Counted from the stretch's first letter, positions 1-31,216 are shown. The stretch: 64,000 nucleotides of DNA from Chloroflexota bacterium (GCA_965262745.1 OZ253558.1:1090567-1154566); one strand, 5' to 3'. The notes: generated from the sequence alone by a model not told the origin. Translations and numbers: made by a program.

Positions 1-1391
1 CGGCCGGGTTCTCGGCAACCAAGGCCGATGCGCTGCGGCGGGCAATGAGCCGCAAGCGCTCCCTGGCGCATATCCAGGCGCTCCAAGACGATCTGATGCA
101 GGGCATGGTCCGCAACGGCATCCCCGCGCCGACGGCGGAGCAGATCTATGCCCAGATCGAAGGCTACGCGGGCTATGGATTTCCCGAGGCCCATTCCTGC
201 GCCTTCGCTCTGTTGGTGTACGTCTCGGCCTGGCTCAAGGTGCACCACCACACGGAGTTCACCTGCGCCATCCTCAACAGCCAGCCCATGGGCTTCTACA
301 GCCCTCACACACTGATCGGCGACGCCCAGCGGCACGAGGTGACCGTGCATCCCGTGGACATCCAGCACAGCAGCTTCGAGTGCACGGTCGAGCCGGACGG
401 CGCGGTGCGCTTGGGCTATCGCTATGTGGAGGGCTTGGGCGAGGCCCACCGCAAGCGCCTGGATGGGGGTCTCACCCGCGGGCCGTATCGCTCCTTGGAA
501 GACTTCTGCCGCCGGACGCGGTTGCCGATCAACGTCTTGGAAGCGCTGGCCACCGCCGGAGCCTTCCGCAGTCTGGGGCTGAGCCGGCGTGCGGCTCTCT
601 GGCAGGTGCGGGCCTACGCGCCCACGGCCCGTGGCGGGGAGTTTCCCGGCCTTGTGGCCGACCTGGAAGAGCCGGTTGCGCTGCCGTCGGCCGACGCGCT
701 GGTGCAGGTCCGGATGGACTTCGCCGCCACCGGCCTCTCAACCCGCTGGCGCGGCCTGGAATTCCTGCGGCCGGCTCTGGCACAAGCCGGCGTGCTGCGC
801 GCCGCCGACCTGCAAGACCTCGCCGCCACGCGGCGGCGTGCAGGCCCGGACGGTGCATCGCAGCCACACACGCCCAAGAGGCGGCGGCGCGCTCACATCC
901 ACCGGGTCTCAGTCCCGACAACCGTGCCCCGACCGAACCGCCGCAGGCGCCACGGTCAAGGCCGACCGCCACGCCAACCCATGGCAGGACGCTACGGCGA
1001 GCGGGCCCACCGCACGGGAAATAGCTACGACGGGCGGAGCAGCGGCCGGCAGTTCCAGGGCTTGGGCGACAGCGGTGTTCCCGAAACCCTGCGCGAACAG
1101 GCCCGCACCGGAATCATGGTCACCGTGGCCGGCATCGTGATCAACCGTCAGCACCCGCCCACCGCGCGTGGCTACACCTTCCTCTCCCTGGAAGATGAAA
1201 CCGGGCTGGTCAACGTCATCATTCGCCCGCCGGTCTTCACCCGCTACCAGCGCGCGATCCTGGATTCCCCGGTGATGCTGGTCGTCGGCGAGCTCCAGGA
1301 CGAGCACGGCGCCGTGCAGGTCATGGCCCACACCTGCACACCCGTCACGTCCAACAGCCTGGGCGCGCCGCCCGCTCGTGATTGGCAGTGA
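1..1391 (+). CDS. dnaE2: DnaE-family DNA polymerase III alpha subunit, C-terminal part (error-prone DnaE2/ImuC-like), 5'-truncated by the window edge
   Basis: Frame-3 ORF 45..1391 is open back to nt 1. It carries an FPEAHSCAFALLVYVSAWLKVHHHTEF motif typical of DnaE2 and a C-terminal OB-fold-like block (GIMVTVAGIVINRQHPP...FLSLEDETG). An Arg/Pro-rich low-complexity stretch at about nt 820-1080 is atypical for the family. Confidence 0.55.
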   Translation, partial: AGFSATKADALRRAMSRKRSLAHIQALQDDLMQGMVRNGIPAPTAEQIYAQIEGYAGYGFPEAHSCAFALLVYVSAWLKVHHHTEFTCAILNSQPMGFYSPHTLIGDAQRHEVTVHPVDIQHSSFECTVEPDGAVRLGYRYVEGLGEAHRKRLDGGLTRGPYRSLEDFCRRTRLPINVLEALATAGAFRSLGLSRRAALWQVRAYAPTARGGEFPGLVADLEEPVALPSADALVQVRMDFAATGLSTRWRGLEFLRPALAQAGVLRAADLQDLAATRRRAGPDGASQPHTPKRRRRAHIHRVSVPTTVPRPNRRRRHGQGRPPRQPMAGRYGERAHRTGNSYDGRSSGRQFQGLGDSGVPETLREQARTGIMVTVAGIVINRQHPPTARGYTFLSLEDETGLVNVIIRPPVFTRYQRAILDSPVMLVVGELQDEHGAVQVMAHTCTPVTSNSLGAPPARDWQ

Positions 1392-1394: not shown

Positions 1395-2009
1395 GTGGGC
1401 ACGGTTCTGCCGTCGCTTTCTTCGGGAACCCGCAATGTGCTCCCCGTCCCGTTCCGATGTGTATTTACCATGACCCAGCCGAAGCGGTATGCCGTCCTAT
1501 CGTGCGGCAAGCGTAAGCGAGCTTTGGGTATCCAGACGGATGCACGAAGACGAAGACCCATGACTCTCACAGAAAGCACTGCGACCCAACAGCTAAGTTT
1601 GTCCGAAGAACTCGTGCTGATGCTCCTCAACGAGGAGACCGGCTATTTTCACCAAGTCCCCGGCTGGCATTTGAACTGCGCCGTCGTCGACGCCGTCCTC
1701 GCGAAACTTTCACTCATATCTCGCATTGATACGGATATGGAATCTCTGTTCCTTTTGGAAGAGACAGCAACAGGCAATCCCGCTCTGGACCTTATCCTCA
1801 AGGAAATTGCAAGCGAACCAGTGCAACGAAATGCCCAGTTCTGGATCGAACGGCTCGCACCCCGCGCGGAGTCAATCATTGATTTGACGCTGGATCGCTT
1901 GGTTAGGCTGAAGATCCTGGACTCCCACGAGGGCGAATTCTGGACGCTGTCTCGTAGTGTCCTGCAGACGGAACTGTTGAACAGCTCCCCAGAAGGCACT
2001 GCGGTTTAG
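1395..2009 (+). CDS. GOLPH3/GPP34-family protein (phosphoinositide-binding Golgi phosphoprotein 3-like)
   Basis: The ORF has a GPP34-like core (LSEELVLMLLNEETGYF...AVVDAVLAKLSL...LDLILKEI). The true start is probably an internal ATG at 1470 or 1560. GC here is clearly below that of the flanks. Confidence 0.45.
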   Translation: MGTVLPSLSSGTRNVLPVPFRCVFTMTQPKRYAVLSCGKRKRALGIQTDARRRRPMTLTESTATQQLSLSEELVLMLLNEETGYFHQVPGWHLNCAVVDAVLAKLSLISRIDTDMESLFLLEETATGNPALDLILKEIASEPVQRNAQFWIERLAPRAESIIDLTLDRLVRLKILDSHEGEFWTLSRSVLQTELLNSSPEGTAV

Positions 2010-2165
2010 TTCGTAAGAACGCGCATCGGCAAGGCGATCTTCAACAACGAGATTCCTGACCCGAGAGATATCATAATTGTTTGCCTCATCAATACGTGCG
2101 ATGTATTTCGCTTTATATTCCAGCTTGAAGACGAGGATGAAGAACGGATCCAGTTCATCTGCAAG

Positions 2166-3589
2166 ATGGATTTGATCGGCCGATCCATCGCCGATGCGGT
2201 TGCCCAAAGCCTTGCCGGCCCGTTGCTTCGACGTTCCTCCCTGACCAAGAAGATTCCGACGGTCTCGCTGCGTCGATTGCTTCTCAATCCACATGTCCGC
2301 AGCGGAAACATTCCCGCCCTCTTCGCAGATCTCGCAGAAGACTACGGCCCTGTGTTTGCGATCCGGCCGCCGTTGGCGGAACCCTTGATCTTCTTGGCTG
2401 GTCCCGAGACAAACCGCTGGGTGCATCGGAGCGGGCGCATGCACCTGCGCGCCAAGGACTTTTCGCCGATTTCGAGAAGGTCTATGGTGCCTCTGGAGTA
2501 CTACCATCGCTTGATGGCGCCGATCATTTCCGGCTTCGCAAGTCCATGGGGCCGGCGTATTCTCACGGGAGACTAGCTGGGCAGCTGGATCAGCTCTATC
2601 ACCATGTCCATACATATATGGCGCATTGGACGGTTGGAGACTCGGCGTCAGCGACCACCATGTGCCGGCGAATGATTAACGCGCAGATCTCGCCACTTTC
2701 GGTCAGCGTTGATTCGCAGGACATCATCGACGATCTCATGAAGTACAAGGAGCGAGCGCTCAACACACACATCGTGAACGTCTTGCCCAAATTCATGCTG
2801 TATACCCCGGGAATGAGACGCCGGGCGAAAGCCATCGGCACCTTGCTGGAACGGGTTCAGAGCGTCCATACAGCCGCCCAACGGGCTGGATGTCCGCGGA
2901 ACCTTGCGGATGACATCCTAAGCCTACACGCCAGCGATCCGCAGTTCCTCCCTGAGTCGAATCTGCGTTTCGCCCTTTCGGCAGCGCTGACTGCCAGTGT
3001 GTACCTTGGCGATGCGCTGAGCTTCGCGGTCTACGCCATGGCGTCACAACTCGAGCTTTACGAAGAGATTCGGAATGAAGCCGATGTTCTATTTGCAAAC
3101 GGCGACCCGGATCAGGAAGACCTCAACCCATCGGCAGGCGGAATCGACGTCACGCACCGATTCCTCATGGAGTGCCTGCGTATGTACGCGATCGTCCCGA
3201 TGTCGATTCGAAACGTGATGAATACGTGTGTGGTCAAGGACTACGAACTACCAATAGGGTCACGGATCTACATCGCCCAAACAGCCGCGCATTATATGAG
3301 CGATGTCTTCCCCGACCCCTTCTCATTCGATATCGACCGTTACAAGCCTCCGCGCAATGAGCATCGTAGCCCCGGGTACGCCCCGTATGGGCCGGGCCCG
3401 CACACCTGTCTCGGCTCACGGTGGATGGACCTGCAGCGGGCGGTCAACGTGCTGATGATCACGCACTACTTCAACCTTGAAATATCCCCCGCGAACTTCA
3501 AGCTCCGGTTCAGCCCACTTCCATCGATGAAGCCGAGCAAGAAGCTGAAGTTCGTTATCGCTGAGCGGAGGCGCGAGGTAAGCGTCTAA
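2166..3589 (+). pseudogene. Cytochrome P450, split by a frameshift around nt 2546-2576 into ORFs 2166..2576 and 2546..3589
   Basis: The C-terminal ORF has the EXXR motif (ECLRMY) and the heme-binding loop FxxGxHxCxG (YGPGPHTCLGSRW). The N-terminal ORF has a P450-type N-terminus. The two frames overlap by about 30 nt and sum to about 475 aa, a normal P450 length. Confidence 0.65.
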
Positions 3590-3628
3590 TGCACCTGGGA
3601 TCGCCCGAGTGACAGGGGCAGCGAGAGC

Positions 3629-4666
3629 CTAAAGGGGTTTGCGAGCCAGGAAACAGTACAACGGCGTGAAGATCTCGGCCCTGCCGCCTGCGACGCAGGC
3701 ATTGGCGGTCCGATTCAGCAGCCCGACGACGTCCGCGGAGCCCTTCGGGAAAATCCCCAGCGCCTCGACCAGCCTAGATGTCCCGATGAACGCCTTGCGG
3801 CCTAGCGGAGTCCTGTACAGGGTGGTACCCAGCGCCTTACGCCGGGTCACCATGGGCTGATACCACGGCGTGGTCAGGCCATTCTCCGCGACGGCCCGGT
3901 CCCGACCCTCGATGATCTGAAATCCCGCCGTTTCAAGGGCTCGGTTCACCTCGCCCATAGTCGCGATATCCTTGAGCGCGATGCCGTGCATCAGATCCTG
4001 CTTGATGGCCCGGTGCCGGTTGTCGTCGGGATCGAACTTGTCCGTCATGCACATTTCCTGACCCCAGAAGAGGGCTCCGGGTTTCAGCACGCGGTAGATC
4101 TCGGCGAACGCGCCCGCCTTGTCCGGAGCATGGCACGTCGATTCGATCGCGTAGCCCCGGTCGAACGTGTCGTCCGCGATGGCGCCCATGTCCATGAAGT
4201 TGCATGCGAGGTAGTCGGCCATGTGGTCGAGTCCCGCCTCAGCGTTTAGCGATTTCGCGTTGTCCAACTGGATTTCATTGTTATTGACCCCGACGACCCT
4301 GACACCAGCCTCCCGGATGACCCGGCGCATCGGGCCGCCGATCCCGCAACCGACATCGATCACCGTCATGCCCTTGCGCAATTCCAGCTTGGCGATCATC
4401 AGTCGCTGGTGCCGGGTCTTGGAGTCCTCCAGGCTCTCCCGCGGCGACAGCGGCGCGAAGTGGAGGGATTCGCCCCAACCGAACACCATGAACTCGCCGC
4501 AAAGGTCGTAGTATTCCTTGACGGTTTGGGTGTGGTCGTAGGCCGTCGCGCCGGCATTCTCCGCGGTCGTTCTGTGCATCCATCCATCGAAGTGTTTCAC
4601 ACGACGGCGGGTGTCCATCCCACGGTACGCAGCCTTCAGCCCGTTGGATAGTTTGCGGAGTTGCAT
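3629..4666 (-). CDS. Sterol 24-C-methyltransferase (ERG6/SMT1-type SAM-dependent methyltransferase)
   Basis: Recalled from memory of yeast Erg6, blocks align along the whole length. Examples: YYDLCGEFMVFGWGESLHF vs ATDFYEYGWGSSFHF, IDVGCGIGGPMRRV vs LDVGCGVGGPAREI, VVGVNNNEIQLDNAK vs VIGLNNNDYQIAKAK, and YAIESTCHAPDKAGAFAEIYRVLKPG vs [26 protein letters not shown]. The C-terminal sterol-MT domain also matches (AGGRAEIFTPLYCFLARKP vs AGGKSKLFTPMMLFVARKP). Confidence 0.8.
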   Translation of the reverse strand: MQLRKLSNGLKAAYRGMDTRRRVKHFDGWMHRTTAENAGATAYDHTQTVKEYYDLCGEFMVFGWGESLHFAPLSPRESLEDSKTRHQRLMIAKLELRKGMTVIDVGCGIGGPMRRVIREAGVRVVGVNNNEIQLDNAKSLNAEAGLDHMADYLACNFMDMGAIADDTFDRGYAIESTCHAPDKAGAFAEIYRVLKPGALFWGQEMCMTDKFDPDDNRHRAIKQDLMHGIALKDIATMGEVNRALETAGFQIIEGRDRAVAENGLTTPWYQPMVTRRKALGTTLYRTPLGRKAFIGTSRLVEALGIFPKGSADVVGLLNRTANACVAGGRAEIFTPLYCFLARKPL

Positions 4667-4942
4667 AAGCTCCCTGTGAAAATAGGAATTGCATGCCTAG
4701 CTAGAGTATCAATTCAGGGGCTGGGTGCGCAAGAGTGAACCGATTGTCATAGCTCTATGCCGTCAAAGCACGCCCGGTGCGTCAATCACCAAGATCTATG
4801 TACCAGTAGAAGGAGAGATCGCCATAAGCTATAGAACACTTAGCCAGGAGGATTGACCACCCTGGGAACCAGATTGACAACCATTGCTGGAGCCTGGATG
4901 CAAGGAGCAGCGATGGCGGACAGAGAGGGGCCGAGAGTGGAG

Positions 4943-7199
4943 CTAGTGGACGTGGTTCGCCGCTGGGAGTCGGGCAACAGCCAACGGCGAGGCCGCCAGC
5001 ACTCCCAGCCCGAGCGCGGTCGTCAGTGCAGAGCCCAACAGCGCCGACCCAGTGGTCGCGAGCGTGCGGACTGCCGCTTCCTCCGGGTTGCGCAGGCGGG
5101 CGAACTCTTCCCGGTAGCGATGAATCACATGGATGGTGTAGTCCACGCCGATCCCGATCGAGAGCGCCGTGATGATTGACGTGATGAGCGAGTAGGGGAT
5201 ACCCAGCAGCGCCATGGTGCCCAGCACACAGATGAGCACGAGCACGATGGGACCCACCGCGACGATCGCCAGCGCCGGCTGGCAAGCGTCACCCAGAAGA
5301 AGACGGCGAGGACGGTAAGGGCCGCCGCGATCGTCGTGGCGACCGCCGCTGTCTGTCGCGCAGTGACTGAGTCGGTGACAGTGATCGAGATGATGCTCTC
5401 CGATGTCGCGGTAATGGCGTCGTCGTCGCCGGCCCAGAGTTCCTCAAGTTCCCGCTGAAGCTCCTTGGTTTGCGTGGGATCGCTTCGGTAGCTCGGGAAC
5501 TGGAGCAGCATGGCGTCGATGCCCTGCGGATTGTTGACCAGCACGCGCGCGACGGCGGGACCCAGGGCTTCAAGCCTGTCGAGGACTGCCTGCATCAGCG
5601 CTGGATCGAGTTGCACCCCTGCCGAGGCTTCCCGGAAGAGCGCCGCAAGTTCTGGGTCGTACTTGTCGCCGGGCTCCCCGCTGTCGGTGGTCCAGTCGCG
5701 CAGCAGCAACTCATACGATGTCTGAATCGGTCCAGCGGCGGTCGACGGGCGCCGGGTTTCGTCCTGAAAGGCGGTTGTGAGGTCGCGCACGTTGAGAAGC
5801 GTGCGGGTCTCCGTAGCCTCGGCCTTGATGAGCACATTGGTCACCTCGCTCGAGCCACCGACGGCCGCTTCGAGGGTGTCCATATCCGCGAGCACGGTTC
5901 CACCTCTGGGGAGGACGTCGCGGATGCTGAATTCCGACTTCAGCCCGGGGGTTGCAATCCCGAGCCCAACGGTGACCGCGAGCACGACGAGGATGTAGGG
6001 GGCCGGCCAGCGGGTCACGCTCCGGCCCAGCAGCCCAGCCAGACGCTCAATGCCCGGCAACGCATTCACGATTGGGTGGGCTGGCTTCAACGTGCCGCGC
6101 GACTCGCGCCGCCGGTCGATGATCGTCCGGCCGGGACCAGCGTCAGCATGACGACTAGGCTCATCCCGACGCCCAGCCCCGCGACGATGCCGAAGTCGCC
6201 AACGATTCCGATCGGGGAGAACAGGCTGGCCAACATACCTACGATGGTGGTGACGGCGGCCAGTAGCAGCGGGACGGCGACGTTACGCAGTCCCAAGCGA
6301 ATGGCCACGAGCACATCCTCACCCTCCGCACGTTGCTCGCGATAGTGCGAGATGGTCTGAATGGCATAGTCCACCGTGAGGCCGATCACGATGATCGGCA
6401 CCATCGTGGTCAGCGAGTTCGGTGGGCCGATCAGACCCAGGGCATTCGGCCCCAGCCAGCCTTCCGCACCGATAATCCAAATGATGGACGTGAGAAGTCC
6501 GCCCAGCGTCAGCCACATGTCTGACAACGTGCGCATGAAGAGCAGCAGCAGCAACGCGATCAGCAGGAAGGCCGCGCCTATCAGCGGCATCATCCCCGTC
6601 TCGGTGGCTACCTTGTTCTCGTCCTCAATCACGATGAACGACACGCTGCTTGCGCGCAGCGGCCCCTCAGCCGCGGCGGCCAGTTCGTTGATCTTGCGCT
6701 CAGCGTCTGCAACTCGCGCGTCGCCGGTGTCGAGCAGGCGAATGTTGGCGATGGCGATCCGCGTGCCGTCCGTATCGGTTCCGGTCATCGCCGCGAGGGC
6801 CGGCTGGATCTCCGGGAGTACGCGAACGGTGTCGATTTGCGCCTGCGTGACCGACTCGAAGCCGTCCACACCGAGCAGGAACTTGACCAGCGACGAAGGC
6901 GCGATGACCGGATCGGCAGGCGCCAGAAGCTCTTGCACGCCCGGGTCGCTGACAACGTCATTGAGGAGGGCGTCCATCTGGGAGAGGCCGGTGGGCGTGA
7001 GCGCTTCCCCTCGAAATAGAAGCGTAACGGCGCTGATCTCACCGTGGTCTCCGAAGAGCTCGTTGGTCTCATCCATCGCTTCGGCAACGGCGCTGCCGTC
7101 GGGCAGCGTGTCCGCGGTCTCCGGGGGCGGCGCGTGGGATAAGGCCAGCAACCTTGCCGCCCTCTGCGAGCCGTGCCACATCCGCGCCCACGGCAACAA
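4943..7199 (-). pseudogene. MMPL/RND-superfamily lipid transporter (HpnN/BstA-like), 5'-truncated and frameshifted
   Basis: Three minus-strand ORF pieces are collinear with one MMPL protein. ORF 6087..7199 holds periplasmic domain 1 and the first TM bundle (GLTVDYAIQTISHYREQ). ORF 5125..6090 holds periplasmic domain 2. ORF 4943..5257 holds the second TM bundle (GVDYTIHVIHRYREE). The frames differ between pieces, and TM1 and the N-terminus are missing. Confidence 0.6.
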
Positions 7200-7822: not shown

Positions 7823-9085
7823 TCAGAGGACCGTCTTGGGGCGCTCCTTGGTCGGATCGAAGAAGGGGACGCGTGCCACCTCGGCGTCGACGATGCCGTC
7901 CTTGGGGAGCAGCACGTTGACACGGGTGCCTCGCCGCCAGTGCGTCCGAGGCATCACCGCCAGGGCGATATTCGATCCGACGCTTGGGGACCAGAAGGCG
8001 CTGGTGACGTAGCCCACGTCATGGCCGGCGTCGAGGTCCTTGACCAGGTAGAAGTCCTCGTTGTACCAGGTGATCGGTTGACCGCCGACCCTCAAACCAA
8101 CCAGGCGCTGCTGCACTCCCTCGTCCTTGATCCTGGCCAGTGCGTCTCTACCTATAAAGTTGCTCTTGTTCAGATCCACCTGCCAGCCGAGCCGGACTTC
8201 ATAGGGATTGTTCTCGATGTCCAAGTCCTGGCCGTAGGACAGGATTCCGGCCTCCAGGCGCCGGATGTGACTGGGAGCGATCACGCGCAGGTTGAACTCC
8301 GCGCCCTGCTCCAGGATGTAAGGCCAGACATCGTCCGCGTGAAGCATGGCGTCGTGCAGGTATATCTCGAAGCCGACCTCAGCCGAGAAGCCTGTGCGCG
8401 AAATCGTTACCGCGTGGCCGTTCAGCGTCTCGTGAATCAGTCCGTAGTAGGGAATGTCTCTCACGTGCGAGCCGAACATCTTCTCCAGCAGCGGGGCCGA
8501 CTTGGGCCCCTGAATCTGGACCGGGGCCACGTCGATCTCGTTGATGTCGACGTTGTATCCGGCGCTGGCGTTGACCCCCTGCGCCCAGAGGAGCACGTCG
8601 GAATCCGAGATGCTGAACCAGAACTCGTCATCGGCGACCCGCAGCAGCACCGGGTCGTTGATGACGCCGCCGTGCTGGTTGCACAGGATCACGTAGCGCG
8701 CCTGCATCGGTGGCAATAGCGCGTGAACGTCACGCGTGATCAGCAGGTTGACGAAGTCGGCGGCGTCCGGGCCTTTGACCTGGATCTGACGCTCCACCGC
8801 AACGTCCCACATGCTCACGTGCTCAGTGAGGTAGCGGTACTCCTCGAGCAGCCCGCCATCCTCGGGTTTGATGTACGCGCGCGGGTGGTACAGGTGGTTG
8901 TAGGTCGTGTAGGCCCAACATCCGGCGGCCTTCGACAGGTGCCACCACGGAGACTTTCTGATGCGCGTCGATATGAGGATCCGTGCGTCGCTGTCCCCGC
9001 TCTGCCGCAGGTTGATCGGCACCCGACGCCGCTTGAGTCCGTCGATCACCAGCGTTTGCGTCACCTGAGGACCTCCAGTCGCCAT
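7823..9085 (-). CDS. Aminomethyltransferase-family protein (GcvT/DmdA-like folate-binding)
   Basis: The 420-aa ORF has GcvT-family architecture. It lies next to a dimethylglycine dehydrogenase-family gene. Confidence 0.65.
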   Translation of the reverse strand: MATGGPQVTQTLVIDGLKRRRVPINLRQSGDSDARILISTRIRKSPWWHLSKAAGCWAYTTYNHLYHPRAYIKPEDGGLLEEYRYLTEHVSMWDVAVERQIQVKGPDAADFVNLLITRDVHALLPPMQARYVILCNQHGGVINDPVLLRVADDEFWFSISDSDVLLWAQGVNASAGYNVDINEIDVAPVQIQGPKSAPLLEKMFGSHVRDIPYYGLIHETLNGHAVTISRTGFSAEVGFEIYLHDAMLHADDVWPYILEQGAEFNLRVIAPSHIRRLEAGILSYGQDLDIENNPYEVRLGWQVDLNKSNFIGRDALARIKDEGVQQRLVGLRVGGQPITWYNEDFYLVKDLDAGHDVGYVTSAFWSPSVGSNIALAVMPRTHWRRGTRVNVLLPKDGIVDAEVARVPFFDPTKERPKTVL

Positions 9086-13721: not shown

Positions 13722-14600
13722 TCAGTATTCATACCGCGCGGCAAACTCCGGCTGATGTTTGCTCAGCCACGCTCGCAGCGGGACGGTCTCGTCGGAGGTC
13801 TCCATGCGCCTACCGGAGCCTTCGATGGTGTCAAGCAGCTGTCGGCGAATCGGGTCCCCTAGGTTGCGCGCCTCGTGCCCGTGCGGTAGCACGTTGTCCG
13901 AGTGCAACCAGCGGTATGCATAAGCGTAGAACAAGACTTTCCGCGTCACTTGCGAGTAGTTTGGACTGCCGCTATGCCACAATCGGGCATCGAAGATCAC
14001 CGCGTCACCGGCACGCGAGAGAATGGGCTCGGCGCCGGGAACAAGACCGCCGGCCCCCGGCTTGACCTCGATGCTTCGTCGTCGGTGGCTTCCCGGAATC
14101 ACCCAGAAATTGCCCATGTCGCGTCTGGTGACATCCGTCAGAAAATAGCCGGCTTTCAGCGACAGTCGCGCTGGAATCTCGATCTCGGCCATGTCAAGAG
14201 ATCTGCGGCCGTTATCTTGATGCCACCCCCCGGGTCCCCGTGGACCGTCGCACGGCTCTGGCGGCGTGAGCATGAGATGCGTGTTTTGCAGGAAGATATT
14301 CCAGCCAAGAATCCCCCAAACCTTAGGAAAGGTCGTCGGGTGATCGATGAGGTTTACGAATGCCGGAGCGAGCCCCACCGCGTTCAAGTGCTGCACCCGG
14401 TTGGTGACGCCGGCATAGGTTTCGCCGGCCGCGAGTCGGCCGTCTCGATGCAGACGGTCGATCACATCGACCAGCCCTGCCGCGTGATCCTGGGTAAGCG
14501 CGCCCTCGACATGCAAATACCCGTTGCGCTCGAAGGCTTTCCCTTCCTCCGCGGTGAGCGCATGCCTCAGGCAGTCGGCGTCCAATGTTTGCCCCCCCAC
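13722..14600 (-). CDS. Phytanoyl-CoA dioxygenase (PhyH)-family Fe(II)/2-oxoglutarate oxygenase
   Basis: A HxD...H facial triad sits in a PhyH-like context (GGWHQDNG ... LWHSGSPN). Confidence 0.7.
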   Translation of the reverse strand: MGGQTLDADCLRHALTAEEGKAFERNGYLHVEGALTQDHAAGLVDVIDRLHRDGRLAAGETYAGVTNRVQHLNAVGLAPAFVNLIDHPTTFPKVWGILGWNIFLQNTHLMLTPPEPCDGPRGPGGWHQDNGRRSLDMAEIEIPARLSLKAGYFLTDVTRRDMGNFWVIPGSHRRRSIEVKPGAGGLVPGAEPILSRAGDAVIFDARLWHSGSPNYSQVTRKVLFYAYAYRWLHSDNVLPHGHEARNLGDPIRRQLLDTIEGSGRRMETSDETVPLRAWLSKHQPEFAARYEY

Positions 14601-14654
14601 GCACGCGCCTGCGACGCGAACCTAGCACACGGCGCAAGTGGCGGCAGCACTTAT

Positions 14655-15218
14655 CTAGACCGCGCTCTCGGGCATCCGCTCCCACTCCTCGCGCAGGACC
14701 CCGTAGTAGACAAAGTCCACATGTTCGTCCCGCATCTTGCGATGGCCCCGCAGCAAGCCCTCACGCGTCATGCCGACTTTTTCCATGACGCGCCACGACT
14801 GACGGTTCCTCACATCCGAGCGCGCGAAGACTTTGTGCAGGGCGTATCTCTCGAACCCCCAGTCGATGACGGCCCGAGCTGCCTCCGGCACAATTCCGCG
14901 ACCCCACGCCTGCCTAGCCAGTGCGTAGCCCATCTCAGCTATCTCGTGCCGCACATTAACATGCAAGCTTATGCTGCCGACAACCTGCCGCTCCCAGACT
15001 ATCGCGAACGTTGGTTCGGTCGACCAATCATCAAGAATCCTTCGTGCGACGTACTCCACCGCATCATCGTGCGTGTACGGATGGGGAATCGGCAGATATC
15101 GTCCGACCTCGGGGCCCGACGCGTAGGCCAGCACGTCGTCGACATCACCGAATTCGAACGGCTGCAGCAAGAGCCGCTCCGTCTTCAACTCGACGCGCTC
15201 GTTCGGATCGTGGCTCAT
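14655..15218 (-). CDS. GNAT-family N-acetyltransferase (RimJ/RimL-like)
   Basis: The GNAT core is present (ERLLLQPFEFGD ... GYALARQAWGRG). The ORF extends to 15491 but the first plausible start is MSHDPNE at 15218, just below the upstream gene stop at 15233. Confidence 0.65.
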   Translation of the reverse strand: MSHDPNERVELKTERLLLQPFEFGDVDDVLAYASGPEVGRYLPIPHPYTHDDAVEYVARRILDDWSTEPTFAIVWERQVVGSISLHVNVRHEIAEMGYALARQAWGRGIVPEAARAVIDWGFERYALHKVFARSDVRNRQSWRVMEKVGMTREGLLRGHRKMRDEHVDFVYYGVLREEWERMPESAV

Positions 15219-15232
15219 CGCTTCATCGCTAG

Positions 15233-16210
15233 TTAGTCCTCCGACAGCCCGGCGAACCTTGCCGCGTTCGCGCCGAGGATCAGCCGCTTTTCCTCGTCCG
15301 AGAGGAAGTTCGCATGCGTCGTGACCATCGTGAGGTTCTGCTTGTACGTGCAGCGGCCCTCGGTCCATGGCCAGTCCGTGCCCCACATCACACGCTCCGC
15401 GCCGGCGCCCTTGACCAGCCCCTCCAGTAGCGCGAGTCCGTTGGCGTACGGGTACTCCCATTCCGGGCCTTTCAGCCGGCCGTTCGTCCACGCGATCTCA
15501 TCCCCAAAGAAGATCGTGATGGCGGCGATGTCGGTGTAGAGGTTCTCGTGCCTGTTGAGCAGCCCCACGAAGGGCTCCAACGACGGAAACGGCGGGCGGC
15601 AGTTCGCCAGCCATTGGTCGCCCCAGGTGAAGCACCCCCAATGGGTCAGCAGGAACCGCACCGACGGGAAGTCGCGCGCGACCGGTTCGAATAGGTTGAG
15701 GAACTCCTGATAGTCCGAAACGCAGGCACGCAAGCGAGGATCGTTCCAGCGTTCCCAGGCCATGACGATCGGCACGTCGCGCTCCGCACACAGCTCGTAG
15801 ACCTTGCGCAGGCCGGGGTCGGACGGCCAGTGGCCGGTATAGGCCGGGAACAGCTTGAGCCCCACCGCCCCCGCGTCGAGATCCGCCCGGATCCGGTCGA
15901 GGTAGCCCGGTCGATCGGGGTTGATGTGATCGGTGAACCAGATGAAGCGATCGTGGTCGGCCGCCTTCAGCGCGTCGAGGAAATACTCCTTGGTGATCCG
16001 GTTGATGGCCGGATCGTCCCAGGTGTCGCCGAGGTCCGGCCAGATGTCCTCGGCCGTGTAGCTGATCAGAAAGCACTTGTCCACGCCGGCATAGTTCATC
16101 TCGTCGAGCAGCAGCTCGGCCGACATCGGGTGCCAGGTGTAGTGCATCCGGATACTGCGCTCAACGCCGTGCGCCTTCTCCAAGATGTGGACTTGGGTGT
16201 CGATGATCAT
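15233..16210 (-). CDS. Amidohydrolase-2 family metal-dependent hydrolase (TIM barrel)
   Basis: The protein starts with the metal-ligand motif IDTQVHI and has an HxH-like pattern. Its 325-aa length fits the PF04909-like family. Confidence 0.65.
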   Translation of the reverse strand: MIIDTQVHILEKAHGVERSIRMHYTWHPMSAELLLDEMNYAGVDKCFLISYTAEDIWPDLGDTWDDPAINRITKEYFLDALKAADHDRFIWFTDHINPDRPGYLDRIRADLDAGAVGLKLFPAYTGHWPSDPGLRKVYELCAERDVPIVMAWERWNDPRLRACVSDYQEFLNLFEPVARDFPSVRFLLTHWGCFTWGDQWLANCRPPFPSLEPFVGLLNRHENLYTDIAAITIFFGDEIAWTNGRLKGPEWEYPYANGLALLEGLVKGAGAERVMWGTDWPWTEGRCTYKQNLTMVTTHANFLSDEEKRLILGANAARFAGLSED

Positions 16211-20676: not shown

Positions 20677-21330
20677 TTAGTAGATACGCGCGAGGTTCCG
20701 CACCGCGTCCCGAAACACTTGACAGCTTTTCGATCGGTTCCTATCCACGTCCAGGAAAGGCGCTATTTGCTCAGCCCACTCAGCCTTGGCCCGCCCCATC
20801 TCGGGGTACCCCGCTCTAAGGAGCCGCGCCGATCCACCTTGGTATATGGCGTCCGCCAAAACCTCCCACGTTCCGCATATACTGTCCTGAGAGTATCTGT
20901 TCAGAACTGAATTCTTTGCGTTGGGATAGGCAGCCTTTATAGCGTCGCGATCGCCCAGTAGCCACGCCTCAATTTCCTCGATGGCGATCCTAAATACCGT
21001 TTGTGGACGCGGGTAGCATGCCTGGAGCACATTGAGCAGTTGTTGCTTGAATGACAGGCAATCTCTATCGTCCAAGTCCACAATCACCAGTACTGCCTGG
21101 CAAGATCCGAGACTCCTACCATATCCGCGCAAGAGGCGAGGCAGGTGATCCAGTAGCAGTCGCTTCGTTGGATCCGGCACACCGTACAGATTCCTCGGTA
21201 TACGACCAATACCTCGGTAGGAATGAATCCTCCACGAATGCATGGTATTATTTTGACCTAGAATCTTTTCCAGAATAGCCTTGACCGTGATACTTCCAGA
21301 TCTATCCTCAACCAATATTTCGAAATGCAC
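20677..21330 (-). CDS. DUF4276-like protein (predicted TOPRIM/OLD-like nuclease partner)
   Basis: The N-terminus reads HFEILVEDRSGSITVKAILEKILG, followed by an acidic VIVDLDD block typical of DUF4276. The likely GTG start at 21330 lies 4 nt after the ATPase stop. GC is lower than the flanks. Confidence 0.6.
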   Translation of the reverse strand: MHFEILVEDRSGSITVKAILEKILGQNNTMHSWRIHSYRGIGRIPRNLYGVPDPTKRLLLDHLPRLLRGYGRSLGSCQAVLVIVDLDDRDCLSFKQQLLNVLQACYPRPQTVFRIAIEEIEAWLLGDRDAIKAAYPNAKNSVLNRYSQDSICGTWEVLADAIYQGGSARLLRAGYPEMGRAKAEWAEQIAPFLDVDRNRSKSCQVFRDAVRNLARIY

Positions 21331-21334
21331 TTGT

Positions 21335-22618
21335 CTACTGCTGATCGAAGTAGTCGCTGTACCAGAGACCGCCAAGCGGCAGACCTTCTTCGACCAGAGC
21401 TCGGACAATATGATCGTTGCTCGCCCTAGTAATGGTCGCGAAGCCGTCCGCCGATTTCTCCAAGATCCACGTTTCCTCGGGTGTCAGAGCATCGACGAAG
21501 TAGGGTTGGTGGGTCGTGACAAATATCTGGGGCGCGTTCCGGCGCCCCGAGGCGTGGCGGCGAAACTCATCGGCCAGCAATTCCAATAGTTTGTGATAGA
21601 GACCGTTTTCCGGCTCCTCGATGCATATGAACGGCGGCGGCTGCTGATCCTCCAGCATCAGCAGATACGCAAAGACTTTGAGTGTGCCGTCGGACACTTG
21701 CTGCGCGTAGAACGGGTCAGCGAAGCCCTTATCGTTGAAGCGCAGCAGCAAGCGACCGTCAGGACTGCGTTCCGTATCGATGCGGTCGATGCCGGGAACT
21801 CTCCTGGCAATCCGTCCAAGGATGCGTTCAAACCTATCGCGGTGCTCCCGCTCCATGAATTGCACGACGTTGCCCAGATTGTCTCCGTGGATATTCAGAT
21901 GCCGCTGGGGTCCAGCCATTGGCAACCCGCGCGCGGCGTCCGGCGTAAAGTAGCTCAGATACCAGCCTTCGATAAACTGACGAAAAGCCGCGATTCTCGG
22001 ATGTTGCTTCAGTGCCCCCAGGGTTGCAATACCCAGCTTGCGCTTGTCCTGAAGTTCAATAATCTCCCGTCCCGCGCCCTCCTCGTTTTCTAACCCTCTC
22101 AGTAGCGCTGAAAGGTCCACTTCCAGTCGGCCATCTTCATCGACCTGCAAACCCTGCACCTCGCCTGCCCAGGCCATTCCCTTGCCCTCGTTCAGCATCA
22201 AGAACGAAAATGGCCAGCCGCGTCTCTGTCCTCGACGACGCTGGCGCAGGCGTTCGCGTGAAACATAGGGGCGGCCCGAATCGTCCTTGTCGATCGCAAA
22301 TTCGTATGTGATCGGTCGAGCCTTCGAATCCTGCCGGTAATAGACCTCGAACTCGATGGGGGTGTCGCTACCCTGTGATCGTATGCGGTCGAACCCGCCG
22401 CGCCCACGCACGTCGCAGGCCTCTTCGACACCGAGCTTCAGGCAATCCGCCAGGAATCCGAAAGCATCGAATAGGGAGCTCTTGCCAACCCCGTTCTTTC
22501 CAATCACCGCCGTCAGCGGCTCTAACGGCTGGGCGGCAGGCGTGTTCCACAGCTTGCCTAGGGTGATGTCGTGCAACACCCGGTAGTTCCTGATGCCGAT
22601 GCCTTCGATACGGGCCAT
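21335..22618 (-). CDS. AAA_21/ABC-type ATPase (OLD/AbiL/PARIS-AriA-like ATPase component)
   Basis: There is a Walker A (GKNGVGKSSLFDAF) near the N-terminus, and a distal signature/Walker B region (FICIEEPENGLYHKLL...VTTHQP). Confidence 0.75.
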   Translation of the reverse strand: MARIEGIGIRNYRVLHDITLGKLWNTPAAQPLEPLTAVIGKNGVGKSSLFDAFGFLADCLKLGVEEACDVRGRGGFDRIRSQGSDTPIEFEVYYRQDSKARPITYEFAIDKDDSGRPYVSRERLRQRRRGQRRGWPFSFLMLNEGKGMAWAGEVQGLQVDEDGRLEVDLSALLRGLENEEGAGREIIELQDKRKLGIATLGALKQHPRIAAFRQFIEGWYLSYFTPDAARGLPMAGPQRHLNIHGDNLGNVVQFMEREHRDRFERILGRIARRVPGIDRIDTERSPDGRLLLRFNDKGFADPFYAQQVSDGTLKVFAYLLMLEDQQPPPFICIEEPENGLYHKLLELLADEFRRHASGRRNAPQIFVTTHQPYFVDALTPEETWILEKSADGFATITRASNDHIVRALVEEGLPLGGLWYSDYFDQQ

Positions 22619-23031: not shown

Positions 23032-26000
23032 CTACGCGGGTGTGAGCGGGCTCTCAGCCTCGTCGTGGGCCATTTCAAACAGCCGCGCCAGGGCGTTGGC
23101 CAGGTGCATTTGGCGGGGCGTGCGGCAGCGCACGGCGAGCAAGCCCGGACTGGCCACGACTACCGCCAGGCACTTGGCGCGGCTGGTGGCGACGTTCAAG
23201 CGGTTGAGGCTGTAGAGAAACTCCATGCCACGCGGCGCCTCGTCGGCAGAGCTTGTGGCCATCGAGTAGATGGAAATCGGGGCTTCCTGGCCTTGGAACT
23301 TATCGACAGTGCCGATTCGCAACTCCCGGAGCTCAGGTCGGGATGCAAGCTCCCCGATCTGGCGGTTGTAGGGCGTGATGATGAGCACGTCTTGAGCGGT
23401 CAGCGCGTGGGTCGCGCCTTCGGCGTCAGTCCATGAGGCGCGCGACCGGAGCAACCGGTCGACGCTCTCGGCAATCGCCGCCGCCTCTTCCTCGGAGTCG
23501 CTGATGCGGCGCTCGTGCGACACGGCCACGAAGCGCAGTCCTGTCCCGAGGAACGGGGACGAGCCGGCCAGGTCCAAGTTCTCGCGGCCGGGATGCGCGC
23601 GCAGGTTGTCCTCGTAGAAGACTTCCGAGGTGAACTCACAGATGCTGGGATGCAGGCGCCACGTGCCGTCGAGAAACAGTCCGAAGTCCTTGGGCATCAC
23701 TCGTGCGTCATCGAGTACGTGCGCCAGCACCGAACGATCCGCGCCTGGCGGATGCACGCCCTGCAGCGGCTGATCCAGCTGCTGCGGGTCGCCCAGCAGC
23801 AACAGGCTCTTGGCGCAACGTGCCGAGGCCAAGGCGTCGGCCAGCGACATCTGCCCGGCCTCGTCGATGCAGAGCACGTCCACCAAGCCCTCCGCGTCGT
23901 CACGCGCCCAGAGCCAGGAAGTTCCGCCCACCACGTCAAGCGTTCCTCTGGCCAGGGCCATGCACGCATCCTCGGTTTTCGCGAGGGGTACCGCGTCCGC
24001 GAATTCGGGCTCGGCTGACCGGTAGCGGGTCCGCTGGCCGATCCTGACCGGGACGCCGCGCTCGCGGGCCACCCGCGCCGTCTTCTCCAGCAACTCACCG
24101 ATCACCTTGTGGCTGTTGGCCGTCACGCCCACGCGCTTACCCGCCTCCACGAGGTCCACGATCATCTCGGCACCAACCGTGCTCTTGCCCGAGCCGGGCG
24201 GTCCCTGGATCGCCAGGTAGCTCTCGTCCAGCATCTGCACCAGCCGCCGGGCCGCATCCTGCGCATCCTCGCCGTCCGCCGTCAGCGGTGATCCGTCGGT
24301 CTGTCCAACCCGTGGCGGACAGCGCATCAACAGGTCTCGGGCCGCCTGGTACGGCCCGGGCGCGTCGATCCCGTGCTCAATCACCCACGTCGCCAGATTC
24401 CGAAGGCTCGACGGTTTTGGCCCTGGATTGACATATTCGTAGGCGATCAGTGATGTCGGCGCCGGTGCTGCCCGGTTGGACCCAACCTTCAGGTCGATCA
24501 CGCCGTCTCGATCGTTTACCGCGACCACTTCGCCGATCGAATTTCCGTGCTGATCGCGTGGCCGGTCGCCGACTTCGATCTTGTGGTCCTGTGGCGGGAA
24601 CCGAAAGCTGTAGATCTTGGAACGCGACTTGGGCCTGGGATCGGCCCGACTGCGCACGTAGCTGAGCTGGCCCAGCGCGTCCGTCTCGCCGACTCGCTCT
24701 TCGTCGGTGAGTTCGTCCTTCAGGTGGAAATAGCGCCACCAGAACGCCTTATCCTCGCGCCGGTGCCAGTCGAGCAGCTGCGCCAGGAGCCACCGCCCGC
24801 GTTGGCTCGGATCTTCGAGCGACCTGCCGTCCGTCAAGTCCTCGGGCAGGCCCGCTGTCAGCTGGGCCACGAGTTCCTGCACCTCCCGCTGGGCCTCCGT
24901 GTCCTCGGTCTCTTCGGGAGGCTTGACCGTAGGACGCGGCGGGGCTTCGGCGCCGACTTCGTTCACCAGCGCGGCGCGCTGGACTTCCAGCCACTCGCGC
25001 AGATAGCAGGTGGAAAGACAGTCGTCGCGGTTATAGGCCCTGATCTTCTCCAGCAGGCCGTCCCGGTCGGTCCCGTCCTCGGGTTCGAGCCAGTTCTCGA
25101 ACTCCACGATGCTCTCGCCCGCATCGCGTAGATCGATTTCCCGCTTGAATCCGTAGAGCGGCTCCAGCCGCTTGATGGAGTAGCTCTCCACCGAAGCGCG
25201 AACGCCCTGCCGCACGACGCGGTAGAGGTCCACGAACACACTGCCCCGCAGCAGCTGGTCCACCTCTGACTCACGCGTGGCGTAGCGCCCCGCCAGCCGC
25301 TTCATTGCCCCTGTCTCGTAGGGCGCGTAGTGATAGACGTGCATGTCCGGGTGGCCAGTCCGGCGCTCCATGATGAGGTCGATACAGTCCTCGAACGCCT
25401 TACGCTCGGCCGCCGGCGACACGGTGCCGTCCGCGATCGACCAGAACGCGTGAAACCTGGGGTCGCCCGCGGCGTCCGTCTGTCCCGGCTCGATCACGCC
25501 GAAGAGGTAGTCGATGCCGTCGATCTCGTCCGAGCCATAGAACGGATCGCCCTCCAGGTCCAGGAACAGGTCACCGGGCGACGGCTCCGGCAACAGCCAG
25601 AGACCGCGGTCCGGAACAACCACGTCCTCGCGGTCGCGTTCGGGCGGGATGCGCTCCGAGATCACCTGGCCTTCGCCGCGCACCTGGATCGCCGCCTGGG
25701 CCTGCACCCGGGCCAGCGAAACCGGGCTGACGCCGTCCAGCTGTTCCGGCAGCGGCCGCGACGGATCGGCCAGCCCACCCCGTGTGGTCACGTCAATGGC
25801 GTGCAGGGCGCGTCGCTGGCGGGACGTCAGGTTGGCCACCAACGCCAGATCGTCTTCCCGACGCCACTGGGCTCGGCATTCCTGGTTCCACCTGCAGAAG
25901 TCGCAGTGCTGCATGGGTTCCGGCTTGGTCGAGATTGGAAACGCCGATTCGGAGTCGTCGAGCAGCGTCTCGAACTGCCGCGCGACCAGGCGGTAGTAGG

Positions 26001-26577
26001 CCCCGTAGTCGGCGACCCGAAGGCTCGCGGTCCTGCGCGCGACGCCGCCCAGCACCAGATGCATCCGTTCCGGCGGCCGCCCCTGCATTCTCCCGAGCAG
26101 GTCTGAATACATGCTGATCTGCAAGACGGCGGGGGCCGTGGGTTGCCGCGCCAGCTTGGTGTCCCAGACTTCATAGCTCCATGCCCCGAGGTCGCTGGGT
26201 TTCTCGACGCGGCGCAGGAAGTCCGCGTACCCCAGCCGCCGGTCGCCGAGCAGCACGGCCTGGTAGATCACGTCAACGCCATCTCGCATCGCCTGCAGCG
26301 TGGCGGCGTGCTCGGATTCAACCACTCGGGACGGAGACACGGTGTCGGGCGGCCGGATTTCCCTGATTCCCAGGTTCTCGGCGTCCAGCGATTCCAGGAA
26401 GCGCGCCTCATACTCCCGACCGCGCCGCGCCAAACGGTCGAGCACTGGGTCGTCACGAAACGGCCGTTTGAGGTCATGCAGAACCGCGGCGCGCTCCAGG
26501 TTGGCCAGGTGCCGGCACTCCAGGAACGCGACCAGATCGGTGGCGGAGTAGACCAGACGCCTATCAATCAGTTGCAT
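23032..26577 (-). CDS. RecB-like nuclease + RNaseH-like domain + SF1 (Upf1/Dna2-like) helicase fusion protein (TM0106-family N-terminal region)
   Basis: The 1181-aa ORF has an N-terminal RecB/Cas4-like region with a Cys cluster (HCDFCRWNQEC). It has a C-terminal Walker A (GPPGSGKST), a Walker B (CIDEAGQ) and SF1 motifs (GDPQQL, VATSRAK). Confidence 0.7.
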   Translation of the reverse strand: MQLIDRRLVYSATDLVAFLECRHLANLERAAVLHDLKRPFRDDPVLDRLARRGREYEARFLESLDAENLGIREIRPPDTVSPSRVVESEHAATLQAMRDGVDVIYQAVLLGDRRLGYADFLRRVEKPSDLGAWSYEVWDTKLARQPTAPAVLQISMYSDLLGRMQGRPPERMHLVLGGVARRTASLRVADYGAYYRLVARQFETLLDDSESAFPISTKPEPMQHCDFCRWNQECRAQWRREDDLALVANLTSRQRRALHAIDVTTRGGLADPSRPLPEQLDGVSPVSLARVQAQAAIQVRGEGQVISERIPPERDREDVVVPDRGLWLLPEPSPGDLFLDLEGDPFYGSDEIDGIDYLFGVIEPGQTDAAGDPRFHAFWSIADGTVSPAAERKAFEDCIDLIMERRTGHPDMHVYHYAPYETGAMKRLAGRYATRESEVDQLLRGSVFVDLYRVVRQGVRASVESYSIKRLEPLYGFKREIDLRDAGESIVEFENWLEPEDGTDRDGLLEKIRAYNRDDCLSTCYLREWLEVQRAALVNEVGAEAPPRPTVKPPEETEDTEAQREVQELVAQLTAGLPEDLTDGRSLEDPSQRGRWLLAQLLDWHRREDKAFWWRYFHLKDELTDEERVGETDALGQLSYVRSRADPRPKSRSKIYSFRFPPQDHKIEVGDRPRDQHGNSIGEVVAVNDRDGVIDLKVGSNRAAPAPTSLIAYEYVNPGPKPSSLRNLATWVIEHGIDAPGPYQAARDLLMRCPPRVGQTDGSPLTADGEDAQDAARRLVQMLDESYLAIQGPPGSGKSTVGAEMIVDLVEAGKRVGVTANSHKVIGELLEKTARVARERGVPVRIGQRTRYRSAEPEFADAVPLAKTEDACMALARGTLDVVGGTSWLWARDDAEGLVDVLCIDEAGQMSLADALASARCAKSLLLLGDPQQLDQPLQGVHPPGADRSVLAHVLDDARVMPKDFGLFLDGTWRLHPSICEFTSEVFYEDNLRAHPGRENLDLAGSSPFLGTGLRFVAVSHERRISDSEEEAAAIAESVDRLLRSRASWTDAEGATHALTAQDVLIITPYNRQIGELASRPELRELRIGTVDKFQGQEAPISIYSMATSSADEAPRGMEFLYSLNRLNVATSRAKCLAVVVASPGLLAVRCRTPRQMHLANALARLFEMAHDEAESPLTPA

Positions 26578-30906: not shown

Positions 30907-31216
30907 CCACGGCCTCCCGTTCCACGTGCGGACGCATTTCGGCCCGAACGTCCTCCCGGGTCGCCAGTTCCACCGGTCGTTGCAGCAGGTCTTCCAGGTA
31001 GAACTGGGCTCCGAAGTAGGTCCGCCAGTTCGGAGGAGCGTCGAACCGCACCAGGATGTCAACGTCGCTCCCGTCGGTACCTTCGTCCCGGGCATAGGAG
31101 CCGAACAGGGCGAGATCCGCGACGCCGAATCGCTCCGCCAGCACCGGCCGGTGGGCTCGGAGCATCTCCAGCACTTCCGCTCTGGTCATGGCGTCACTCC
31201 GTCGAGGCGGGCGCAT
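30899..31216 (-). CDS. MNT-type nucleotidyltransferase antitoxin (PF01909-like)
   Basis: The 105-aa ORF has the GS...D.D nucleotidyltransferase motif (LFGSYARDEGTDGSDVDILV). Confidence 0.75.
   Translation of the reverse strand: MRPPRRSDAMTRAEVLEMLRAHRPVLAERFGVADLALFGSYARDEGTDGSDVDILVRFDAPPNWRTYFGAQFYLEDLLQRPVELATREDVRAEMRPHVEREAVDV

Follow-up and report, generated by a model that had tools for sequence, protein, structure and literature searches.

The subject of this analysis is a degraded gene cassette in a Chloroflexota bacterium (GCA_965262745.1 OZ253558.1:1090567-1154566), studied in a stretch of 64,000 nucleotides that we call the window. Its only intact gene, at 3629..4666 on the minus strand, encodes a 345-residue Erg6-like methyltransferase of the sterol methyltransferase (SMT) type. 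On one side of it lies a pseudogene of a GPP34::cytochrome P450 fusion (1557..3589, plus strand), which is convergent with the SMT gene, their stop codons being 39 bp apart. On the other side, upstream of the SMT gene and co-directional with it, lies a pseudogene of an MMPL/HAE3-type RND transporter (4782..7199, minus strand). Taking all the evidence below together, we think it probable that positions 1557-7199 are what erosion has left of a lipid-modification cassette that moves horizontally and is characteristic of bacteria living with sponges, mainly Chloroflexota/Dehalococcoidia.

The SMT open reading frame (ORF) matches the Pfam model Sterol_MT_C (PF08498) over residues 282-344 with 62.4 bits at a cut-off of 21.7, and also the class I methyltransferase models Methyltransf_11 (60 bits) and CMAS; all NCBIfam equivalog models score it below their cut-offs. 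BLASTP aligns it with yeast Erg6 over 327 residues, the C-terminal domain included, at 36% identity (E = 2e-74); the length of the yeast query (383 residues) and 28 of 28 numbered residues in it match the numbering of Brown & Welander 2025. The S-adenosylmethionine (SAM)-binding Region II motif DxGxGxxGP is present as IDVGCGIGGP. A search of solved structures with the SMT returned no SMT structure, its top matches being generic methyltransferases such as 3bus and MitM. A protein identical to the product of this ORF is encoded in an independent assembly from another sample (L001), which is 99.94% identical to the window with four gaps. The sequence comparisons thus support a true Erg6/SMT homologue that carries the C-terminal sterol-methyltransferase domain, as the preliminary description of this stretch had proposed, rather than a generic methyltransferase devoid of it.

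That description had also placed a GPP34-family gene and a P450 gene beside the SMT. Both domains are indeed there, the ORF at 1395..2009(+) matching Pfam GPP34 (56.9 bits; cut-off 29.1) and that at 2546..3589(+) matching Pfam p450 (96.5 bits); however, they are fragments of one broken fused gene and not two genes. In tblastn searches with an intact 675-residue fusion from a Chloroflexota metagenome-assembled genome (MAG; locus L003), residues 5-302 align with 1569-2462 in frame +3 at 79% identity and residues 283-675 with 2417-3586 in frame +2 at 72% identity. The start of the gene was placed near 1557, at the methionine that aligns with the N-terminus of the homologues. Nucleotide alignment with L001, L003 and the sister genome OZ244789.1 (L007), whose SMT is 95% identical, locates two lesions. 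The first is a premature TAG at 2007..2009(+) inside the GPP34 domain, shared by the window and L001, where L003 has CAG (Gln) and L007 has GAG. The second is a 1-bp deletion at 2458..2462(+) between the GPP34 and P450 parts, which moves the frame from +3 to +2: near 2460 the window and L001 read GACT-TTTC against GACTACTTC in L003. The P450 segment in frame +2 retains the heme-thiolate motif FxxGxxxCxG as YGPGPHTCLG. Fusions of GPP34 with cytochrome P450 have been described as 'GPP34_L', a set of 656 proteins reported to be exclusive to sponge symbionts (Microbiome 2025, PMC11706023). The intact homologues of our gene agree with these in domain order, length (~675 residues), taxa and habitat, while the window copy is a pseudogene in which the TAG and the 1-bp deletion preclude a single polypeptide. 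As for the type of P450, the best solved relative of the P450 domain in the intact homologue is Methylococcus CYP51 (75.7 bits, E = 2e-20); with a similarity of only this order and no NCBIfam CYP51 match, identity with CYP51 can be ruled out.

The transporter gene is dispersed over three reading frames, and its fragments match Pfam MMPL. Residues 37-375 of the intact 823-residue MMPL protein from L003 align by tblastn with 7136-6120 (frame -3), residues 374-655 with 6129-5284 (frame -2) and residues 657-760 with 5281-4970 (frame -1). Deletions of 4 bp near 6131 and of 1 bp near 5285 disrupt the frame, more indels lie toward the 3' end, and the window has no continuous frame of ~800 residues with two MMPL transmembrane modules. 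The intact homologue scores 221 bits against the HAE3 and 116 bits against the HpnN models, and is like the HpnN/MMPL (HAE3) lipid RND transporters in its Patched/sterol-sensing-like transmembrane regions, but it falls below every equivalog cut-off; the window copy differs further in being frameshifted. The decay of this gene had thus been recognized correctly at the outset, but it is no mere neighbour of the SMT, since it belongs to the same module (see below). L001 carries the identical TAG and 1-bp deletion in the fusion gene. L007 is without the TAG, but there the segment corresponding to window 2185-3341 has been lost by a deletion between short microhomologies, and most of the MMPL gene is gone as well. 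Hence, the fusion and the MMPL gene were inactivated independently in sister lineages, with the SMT gene between them intact. The window therefore offers a snapshot of cassette erosion, in which one gene is kept while its partners decay in parallel.

We examined the SMT against an alignment of 126 sequences of its clade with Erg6, and give positions in yeast numbering. It shares with yeast Erg6 and the plant SMT1/SMT2 enzymes (EC 2.1.1.41, 2.1.1.143) the two-domain architecture, the SAM-binding motif, E195, G217, W286 and the C-terminal G333/G352/F357/P359. Of the 25 residues reported to be conserved across all functional SMTs (Brown & Welander 2025, bioRxiv 10.64898/2025.12.19.695621), the window protein and its clade keep 23, E195 and G217 among them; the exceptions are T78 and F89. 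T78 is replaced by G in the window and by G, S or N across the clade. F89, which is invariant among all functional SMTs tested in the same study, is L in the window and in all 126 clade sequences. In addition, Y/F81 has become M, invariantly or nearly so across the 126, QEM stands in place of YEW, and position 249 is Ile in the window and in 123 of the 126, whereas the Erg6/SMT1/SMT2 enzymes have D or G there. Region I reads EFMVFGWGESLHF as against DFYEYGWGxSFHF in the eukaryotic enzymes, and departs from the pattern Y/F81-E-Y/F83-GWGxxFHF with F89 given for functional SMTs (Brown & Welander 2025, bioRxiv 10.64898/2025.12.19.695621). The Gly249 of the propylating (24-isopropyl-forming) bacterial SMTs, which the SMT literature regards as necessary for propylation and C30 products, is likewise lacking. 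A comparison of 150 cluster representatives at 50% identity revealed a consistent contrast: members of the clade have E[FL]MxFGWGESLHFA in Region I, ..IAL at positions 247-251, PMRRV.RE.G in Region II and FWGQEM in Region IV, while every other representative, including the named plant and fungal SMTs and the canonical bacterial ones, shows the canonical YEYGWGxSFHF and G[DN]GL. By these motifs the clade is a discrete subfamily, which we designate 'SLHF / FWGQEM'; its NCBI name is just 'class I SAM-dependent methyltransferase'.

Some members of this subfamily appear to have been assayed already. In those portions of the supplementary alignment of Brown & Welander 2025 (bioRxiv 10.64898/2025.12.19.695621) that are legible, enzymes can be assigned to it by the Region II and Region IV blocks alone. 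Two rows marked 'No activity' carry both blocks: the Aplysina aerophoba protein JGIcombinedJ30088_10000835 '2 of 2' (GGPMRRV.REAGVRVVG and KPGACFWGQDM) and the Petrosia ficiformis protein LXNJ01004423 (Region IV KPGALFWGQEM). In two more, Nitrospira '2 of 2' and Theonella Chromatiales '2 of 2', the Region II block matches and is the sole readable one. What these rows have in common with the window protein is, as far as the legible blocks go, GGPMRRV.REAG in Region II and FWGQ[ED]M in Region IV. From these blocks, at least two and probably four members of the subfamily have been tested and found inactive, the substrates being desmosterol and 24-methylenecholesterol. Several of the inactive enzymes form the second half of an SMT pair in which the canonical member does show activity (Brown et al. 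2023, PMC10070321), a pattern that suggests that they act on another substrate or at another step instead of being dead. The window SMT resembles the '2 of 2' sponge SMTs (PMC10070321; bioRxiv 10.64898/2025.12.19.695621) in the blocks GGPMRRV.RE.G and KPGA.FWGQ[ED]M, in its identity to Erg6 (~35% in both) and in coming from a sponge symbiont; the likeness is drawn from the signature blocks, the contigs tested by Brown et al. being absent from the 45 metagenome matches of our SMT. The two differ in setting: the A. aerophoba '2 of 2' copy belongs to an OSC/CYP51/ERG24/sdmAB cluster (OSC, oxidosqualene cyclase) with a canonical SMT, the window copy to the decayed MMPL/GPP34::P450 cassette.

These results bear directly on the original proposal that the window protein is a bona fide sterol C-24 methyltransferase making 24-alkyl sterols within an acquired sterol-modification module, which we now regard as unlikely. 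Its homology with Erg6 runs through both domains, 23 of the 25 functional residues are kept, and sponge-associated Dehalococcoidia have been reported with OSC-CYP51-ERG24 clusters (PMC9531527). Some cassettes (L003, L036, L045) contain a canonical SMT too, and the negative assays were made in E. coli lysate with two substrates, which is still compatible with activity on zymosterol, lanosterol or cycloartenol. Against this stand the loss of F89 in 126 of 126 clade sequences and of T78, the substitutions M81, I249 and QEM, and the inactivity of at least two SMTs that, in the legible alignment, have both signature blocks, with two more matching in Region II. Further, the 42 ORFs scanned, which include nearly all those of 200 or more residues in the 64-kb window, contain no sterol-synthesis genes, and the NCBI label does not go beyond the class I family. 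The divergent branch and the failure of its tested members to methylate sterols mean that this ORF is not clean evidence of bacterial 24-alkyl sterol synthesis. This has a wider import, as bacterial SMTs bear on the reading of 24-alkyl and 24-isopropyl steranes as fossils of eukaryotes or sponges: the commonest 'SMT' of sponge Chloroflexota is from a branch whose pocket residues are altered and whose tested members were inactive on the sterols tried, and a capacity for 24-alkylation should not be read from a Pfam Sterol_MT_C match in the genome of a symbiont.

A separate observation concerns four relatives, L003 (17223-18251, minus strand), L013, L036 and L045, whose cassettes additionally encode a canonical SMT (DFYEYGWGRSFHFA) with Gly249. 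From its sequence, this may be a candidate ethylating or propylating enzyme that these Chloroflexota possess beside the divergent SMT.

Relatives of the window SMT are numerous, with 376 matches in the species-representative genomes of GTDB (one genome per species) and 2079 database matches, which does not bear out the initial remark that such genes are rare in bacteria. The best 80 of the 376 matching stretches are 77-95% identical. The relatives come mostly from Chloroflexota/Dehalococcoidia/SAR202 MAGs, with a few from Candidatus Dadabacteria/Thermodesulfobacteriota and Acidimicrobiia. All 45 matches in JGI/WGS (whole-genome shotgun) metagenomes have accession prefixes that, as far as Brown et al. 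name them, denote Petrosia, Sarcotragus or Aplysina sponge metagenomes, the prefix MKWU being unconfirmed. The number of synonymous substitutions per site (dS) is low for comparisons across phyla: the window SMT differs by 0.44 from a Dadabacteria copy and by 0.21 from an Acidimicrobiales copy, and the overall range is 0.2-0.44 among those of Chloroflexota, Dadabacteria and Acidimicrobiia. In a neighbour-joining tree the non-Chloroflexota SMTs nest inside the Chloroflexota radiation. The low dS and the nesting indicate that the cassette moves horizontally among sponge symbionts, and in this respect the idea of a mobile lipid-modification module is borne out. Of the two sources initially entertained for it, a symbiont pool agrees with the metagenome matches, whereas a eukaryotic origin is not supported, as the close relatives are all bacterial and the SMTs named as plant or fungal fall outside the subfamily, with canonical motifs. 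The comparison with L007 is in the same vein. Over window 3332-5481 the two are 97.3% identical (96.5% in the SMT, 97.0% and 98.3% in the pseudogene remnants), as against 91-93% in the flanking housekeeping genes, and dS is 0.086 for the SMT and 0.20-0.30 for those genes; between these two genomes, the SMT segment appears to have diverged more recently than the DNA around it. We also noted one Dehalococcoidia genome with two stand-alone SMT copies (L011 and L012; CBDEGP010000002.1, 1252919-1273953 and 1362589-1383623), which lie ~110 kb apart and differ by a dS of 0.02, pointing to a recent duplication or a double acquisition.

The gene order of the intact cassette emerges from the relatives: an MMPL/HAE3 RND transporter, the divergent SMT, the convergent GPP34::P450 gene, a KshA/SdmA-like Rieske oxygenase and an LkcE-like flavin adenine dinucleotide (FAD) oxidase, the last two being usual rather than constant members. 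For instance, L003 has the 823-residue MMPL gene, the SMT gene and, tail-to-tail with it, the 675-residue fusion, beyond which come a Rieske/KshA_C oxygenase, an amine-oxidase-like flavoprotein and, farther on, a second SMT. Across 86 SMT-centred loci, drawn from the relatives of the window and from genome loci, the SMT gene has a near-full MMPL gene next to it in 60, the fusion gene in 58, the Rieske gene in 60 and the FAD oxidase gene in 43. An uninterrupted fusion is found in 75 of the 128 loci with a full SMT, and 65 of these 75 are convergent, tail-to-tail with the SMT gene (median gap 49 bp). Pairwise identities of the SMT and the fusion are correlated (r = 0.67, a value reached by none of 999 Mantel permutations), and the pairing is still present where SMT identity has fallen to 55% and fusion identity to 41-43%. 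The flavoprotein resembles LkcE (98 bits). The Rieske protein scores 94 bits against KshA, in the Rieske domain, and 35 bits against the SdmA model, far from the cut-off of 600, which rules out that it is SdmA. Neither of these two partners is found in the window: tblastn gave no match to the Rieske oxygenase, and the FAD-oxidase gene is absent.

Variants of the gene set occur. In Candidatus Dadabacteria (L004/L005, 10001-13821) the SMT gene is accompanied by genes for a Rieske oxygenase, a glutathione S-transferase, an FA_hydroxylase and a 3-beta-HSD/OleD-like reductase, without GPP34::P450; the FA_hydroxylase is of the ERG3/ERG25 family, and as a set of sterol-nucleus enzymes this one is different and more eukaryote-like.

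Sponge microbiomes are also the source of the ERG24-CYP51-LSS sterol clusters termed 'CSGs' (Kelly et al. 2022, PMC9531527). Our cassette is like these in its habitat, in horizontal transfer across phyla, in purifying selection and in the enrichment of SMT homologues in symbiont MAGs, but it differs in having no cyclase, CYP51 or ERG24, its P450 not being a CYP51. We thus place the locus as a new, degraded member of two described kinds, the sponge-symbiont SMT homologues and the GPP34_L fusions. It joins two literatures that have been unconnected: the main text of PMC11706023 is without the words sterol, methyltransferase, MMPL and lipid and says nothing of SMT-like methyltransferase, RND pump or Rieske oxygenase genes as conserved partners, the term 'cytochrome P450' does not occur in Brown et al. 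2023 (PMC10070321), and the conserved pairing of SMT and GPP34::P450 is mentioned in neither of them.

These contexts allow a mechanism to be sketched. The SMT would use SAM to C-methylate the side chain of a sterol or of a sterol-like triterpenoid; its altered pocket (M81, L89, I249, QEM for YEW) would give it a substrate or regiochemistry unlike the classical desmosterol-type delta-24 sterol methylation. In the intact cassette, this lipid would also be oxidized by the P450, which its N-terminal GPP34 domain would keep at the membrane in lieu of the transmembrane anchor of eukaryotic P450 enzymes; transport across the envelope would fall to the RND pump. In the lineage of the window, the SMT would work without these partners, and its substrate would be either a sterol from a pathway encoded elsewhere in the genome or one obtained from the sponge host. 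A bolder form of this proposal is that the SLHF/FWGQEM SMT and GPP34::P450 make up a sponge-symbiont-specific pathway of non-classical sterol side-chain decoration, with GPP34_L as a lipid-metabolic enzyme and not a phagosome effector; we put this forward as a speculation that is itself improbable. Such a pathway might involve methylation off C-24, or on an already alkylated side chain, followed by oxidation by the membrane P450, and GPP34_L would be anchored by its phosphoinositide-binding fold. If true, part of the unconventional sponge sterols that serve as biomarkers for Neoproterozoic animals could stem from this SMT family.

Several observations weigh against an eroded lipid cassette that retains a working SMT. 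Oxidosqualene cyclase, squalene epoxidase and CYP51 do not figure among the 42 ORFs scanned in the window, and the sterol-like nature of the substrate is proposed from homology and gene neighbourhood, the subfamily members assayed so far having been inactive. The membrane-anchor role of GPP34 is our own suggestion, the published proposal being a secreted effector that binds phosphatidylinositol 4-phosphate (PI4P; PMC11706023), and the neighbour-joining tree used above is one without support values. Moreover, the number of non-synonymous substitutions per site (dN) between the SMT genes of the window and L007 is 0.021, which is just as far as the pseudogene remnants beside them have diverged (23 of 1112 bp, 2.1%). 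With about one disabling lesion per kb in the neighbouring genes, a neutral gene of 1 kb would still be intact in roughly one case out of three. Selection on the SMT in the window lineage is hence equivocal, and relaxation may be ongoing there.

It is in this light that one has to view the suggestion that the SMT itself is a functionless relic, which has not yet been struck by a disabling mutation while the cassette around it decays. We judge this unlikely. The dN/dS values range from 0.09 to 0.50 and are below 1 in every pair computed, the pair of window and L007 giving 0.24 from 16 non-synonymous and 20 synonymous changes. Because the remnants beside the SMT have diverged so little, dN/dS cannot serve as clean proof of selection in the window lineage, and the values tend to be higher for stand-alone SMTs (0.21-0.50) than for those in intact cassettes (0.09-0.22). 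This tendency, the equality of dN with remnant divergence and the fact that the cassette partners here are all dead or gone are what a relic would lead one to expect. However, the ORF is full-length with every conserved motif present, and its GC content at third codon positions (GC3) is at the level of the host, whereas that of the dead fusion has fallen to 0.63-0.70. Further, intact stand-alone SMTs, with no fusion in the flanks fetched (up to 10 kb per side), occur at about 15 genome loci in some six separate clades of the tree, including L007, L002/L010 and the genome with two copies.

Eukaryotic GOLPH3 binds PI4P. A different function has been proposed for the GPP34 proteins of sponge symbionts. 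On this view GPP34::P450 would be a secreted PI4P-binding effector that blocks phagosome maturation, and its adjacency to the SMT incidental. This is a published hypothesis, and GPP34 proteins are enriched in sponge symbionts and expressed in Aplysina aerophoba (PMC11706023). Nevertheless, we think it improbable that the hypothesis accounts for our locus, given that the pairing is tight, conserved and co-diverging and that the other recurrent neighbours are of lipid type (an RND/HpnN-like pump and a KshA/SdmA-like Rieske oxygenase, or FA_hydroxylase and 3-beta-HSD in Dadabacteria), and that the words sterol, methyltransferase, MMPL and lipid are absent from the main text that advances it (PMC11706023). 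The fusions have so far been read as host-manipulation effectors; their ancient pairing with the SMT and with lipid-type genes provides a testable alternative function for them. It is very improbable, finally, that the stop codon and the frameshifts are sequencing or assembly errors in three intact genes: indels are the commonest error of long-read assemblies, the contig name of L001 indicates 3x coverage and its alignment with the window contains gaps, but the TAG is a substitution, it recurs with the 1-bp deletion in this independent assembly, the sister genome L007 has independent large deletions of the same two genes, and the SMT gene between the broken genes is free of lesions.

The low GC content of this part of the window, to which the preliminary description drew attention, is real: the block at 1395-4700 has 58.0% GC against 66.3% in the rest of the window, putting it among the 3% of segments of that size with the lowest GC. 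As evidence of acquisition it is weak. The dip stems mainly from the dead fusion gene, which has a GC of 54-56%, while the SMT gene has 62.2% GC and a GC3 of 0.82, inside the interquartile range of the host (0.80-0.87; median 0.84). In 58 intact cassettes, GC (0.56-0.66) tracks that of the flanks (r = 0.77) with a mean difference of -1.6 points, and the fusion gene is the lowest-GC member in every one of them. On account of this tracking, and of the constant rank of the fusion, the dip mostly reflects the cassette's own composition, set off by an unusually GC-rich host, and does not mark a recent arrival. GC3 and the 58-locus comparison thus both rule out low GC as proof that the cassette was acquired recently.

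Two other blocks of the window are equally low in GC, and both are defence islands. The first (20677-22618, minus strand) is a pair of genes encoding an AAA_21 ATPase and a DUF4276 protein, with a GC3 of 0.58-0.69, that match the PADLOC candidate defence system HEC-01 (HEC-01A 631 bits, HEC-01B 295 bits). The second (27449-35746, minus strand) is a type I restriction-modification system with HsdR at 27449-30538, HsdS at 32713-34011 and HsdM at 34094-35746, which abuts a tRNA-Leu at 35718-35803. A low-GC insert between HsdR and HsdS encodes a HepT-like RNase toxin, a Hypoth_Ymh/HEPN protein (PD-Lambda-3_B-like) and an uncharacterized ORF. Between the two islands, 23032-26577 (minus strand) encodes a protein of 1181 residues whose RNase_H_2 domain precedes AAA_11/AAA_12 helicase domains and which shows weak PADLOC similarity to Mokosh MkoA/MkoC.

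The cassette is bounded on the left by the C-terminal part of an error-prone DNA polymerase III alpha gene of DnaE2 type (45..1391, plus strand; Pfam HHH_6 and OB-fold) and on the right by an aminomethyltransferase gene (7823..9085, minus strand; Pfam GCV_T and GCV_T_C), the latter flank being found in the sister genome L007 as well. Signatures of a mobile element are missing around the cassette: repeats in the flanks do not exceed chance, no tRNA adjoins it and there is no integrase. Scans for promoters and terminators came out at or below shuffle expectation. In L001 the DnaE2-type gene extends upstream into DNA_pol3_alpha, with ImuB-like and RecA-like genes farther out. Residues ~184-358 of its product in the window (45-1391, plus strand) form a stretch of ~170 residues, rich in R, P and G and of low complexity, between HHH_6 and the OB-fold. 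All three forward frames are open over it, and the gene is called in two pieces in L001; it could be an insertion or a compensated frameshift. A 444-residue ORF at 13902-15236 (plus strand), with no Pfam match, a low GC3 of 0.66 and a dN/dS of 1.3 against L007, is probably not a real gene in that frame. Lastly, the window encodes PD40/WD40 beta-propeller and leucine-rich-repeat (LRR) proteins at 37078-38316 and 39958-42102 (plus strand), which are of the 'eukaryotic-like' repeat type enriched in sponge symbionts, and L001 additionally has, near the cassette, a 1152-residue LRR/Big_5 protein.

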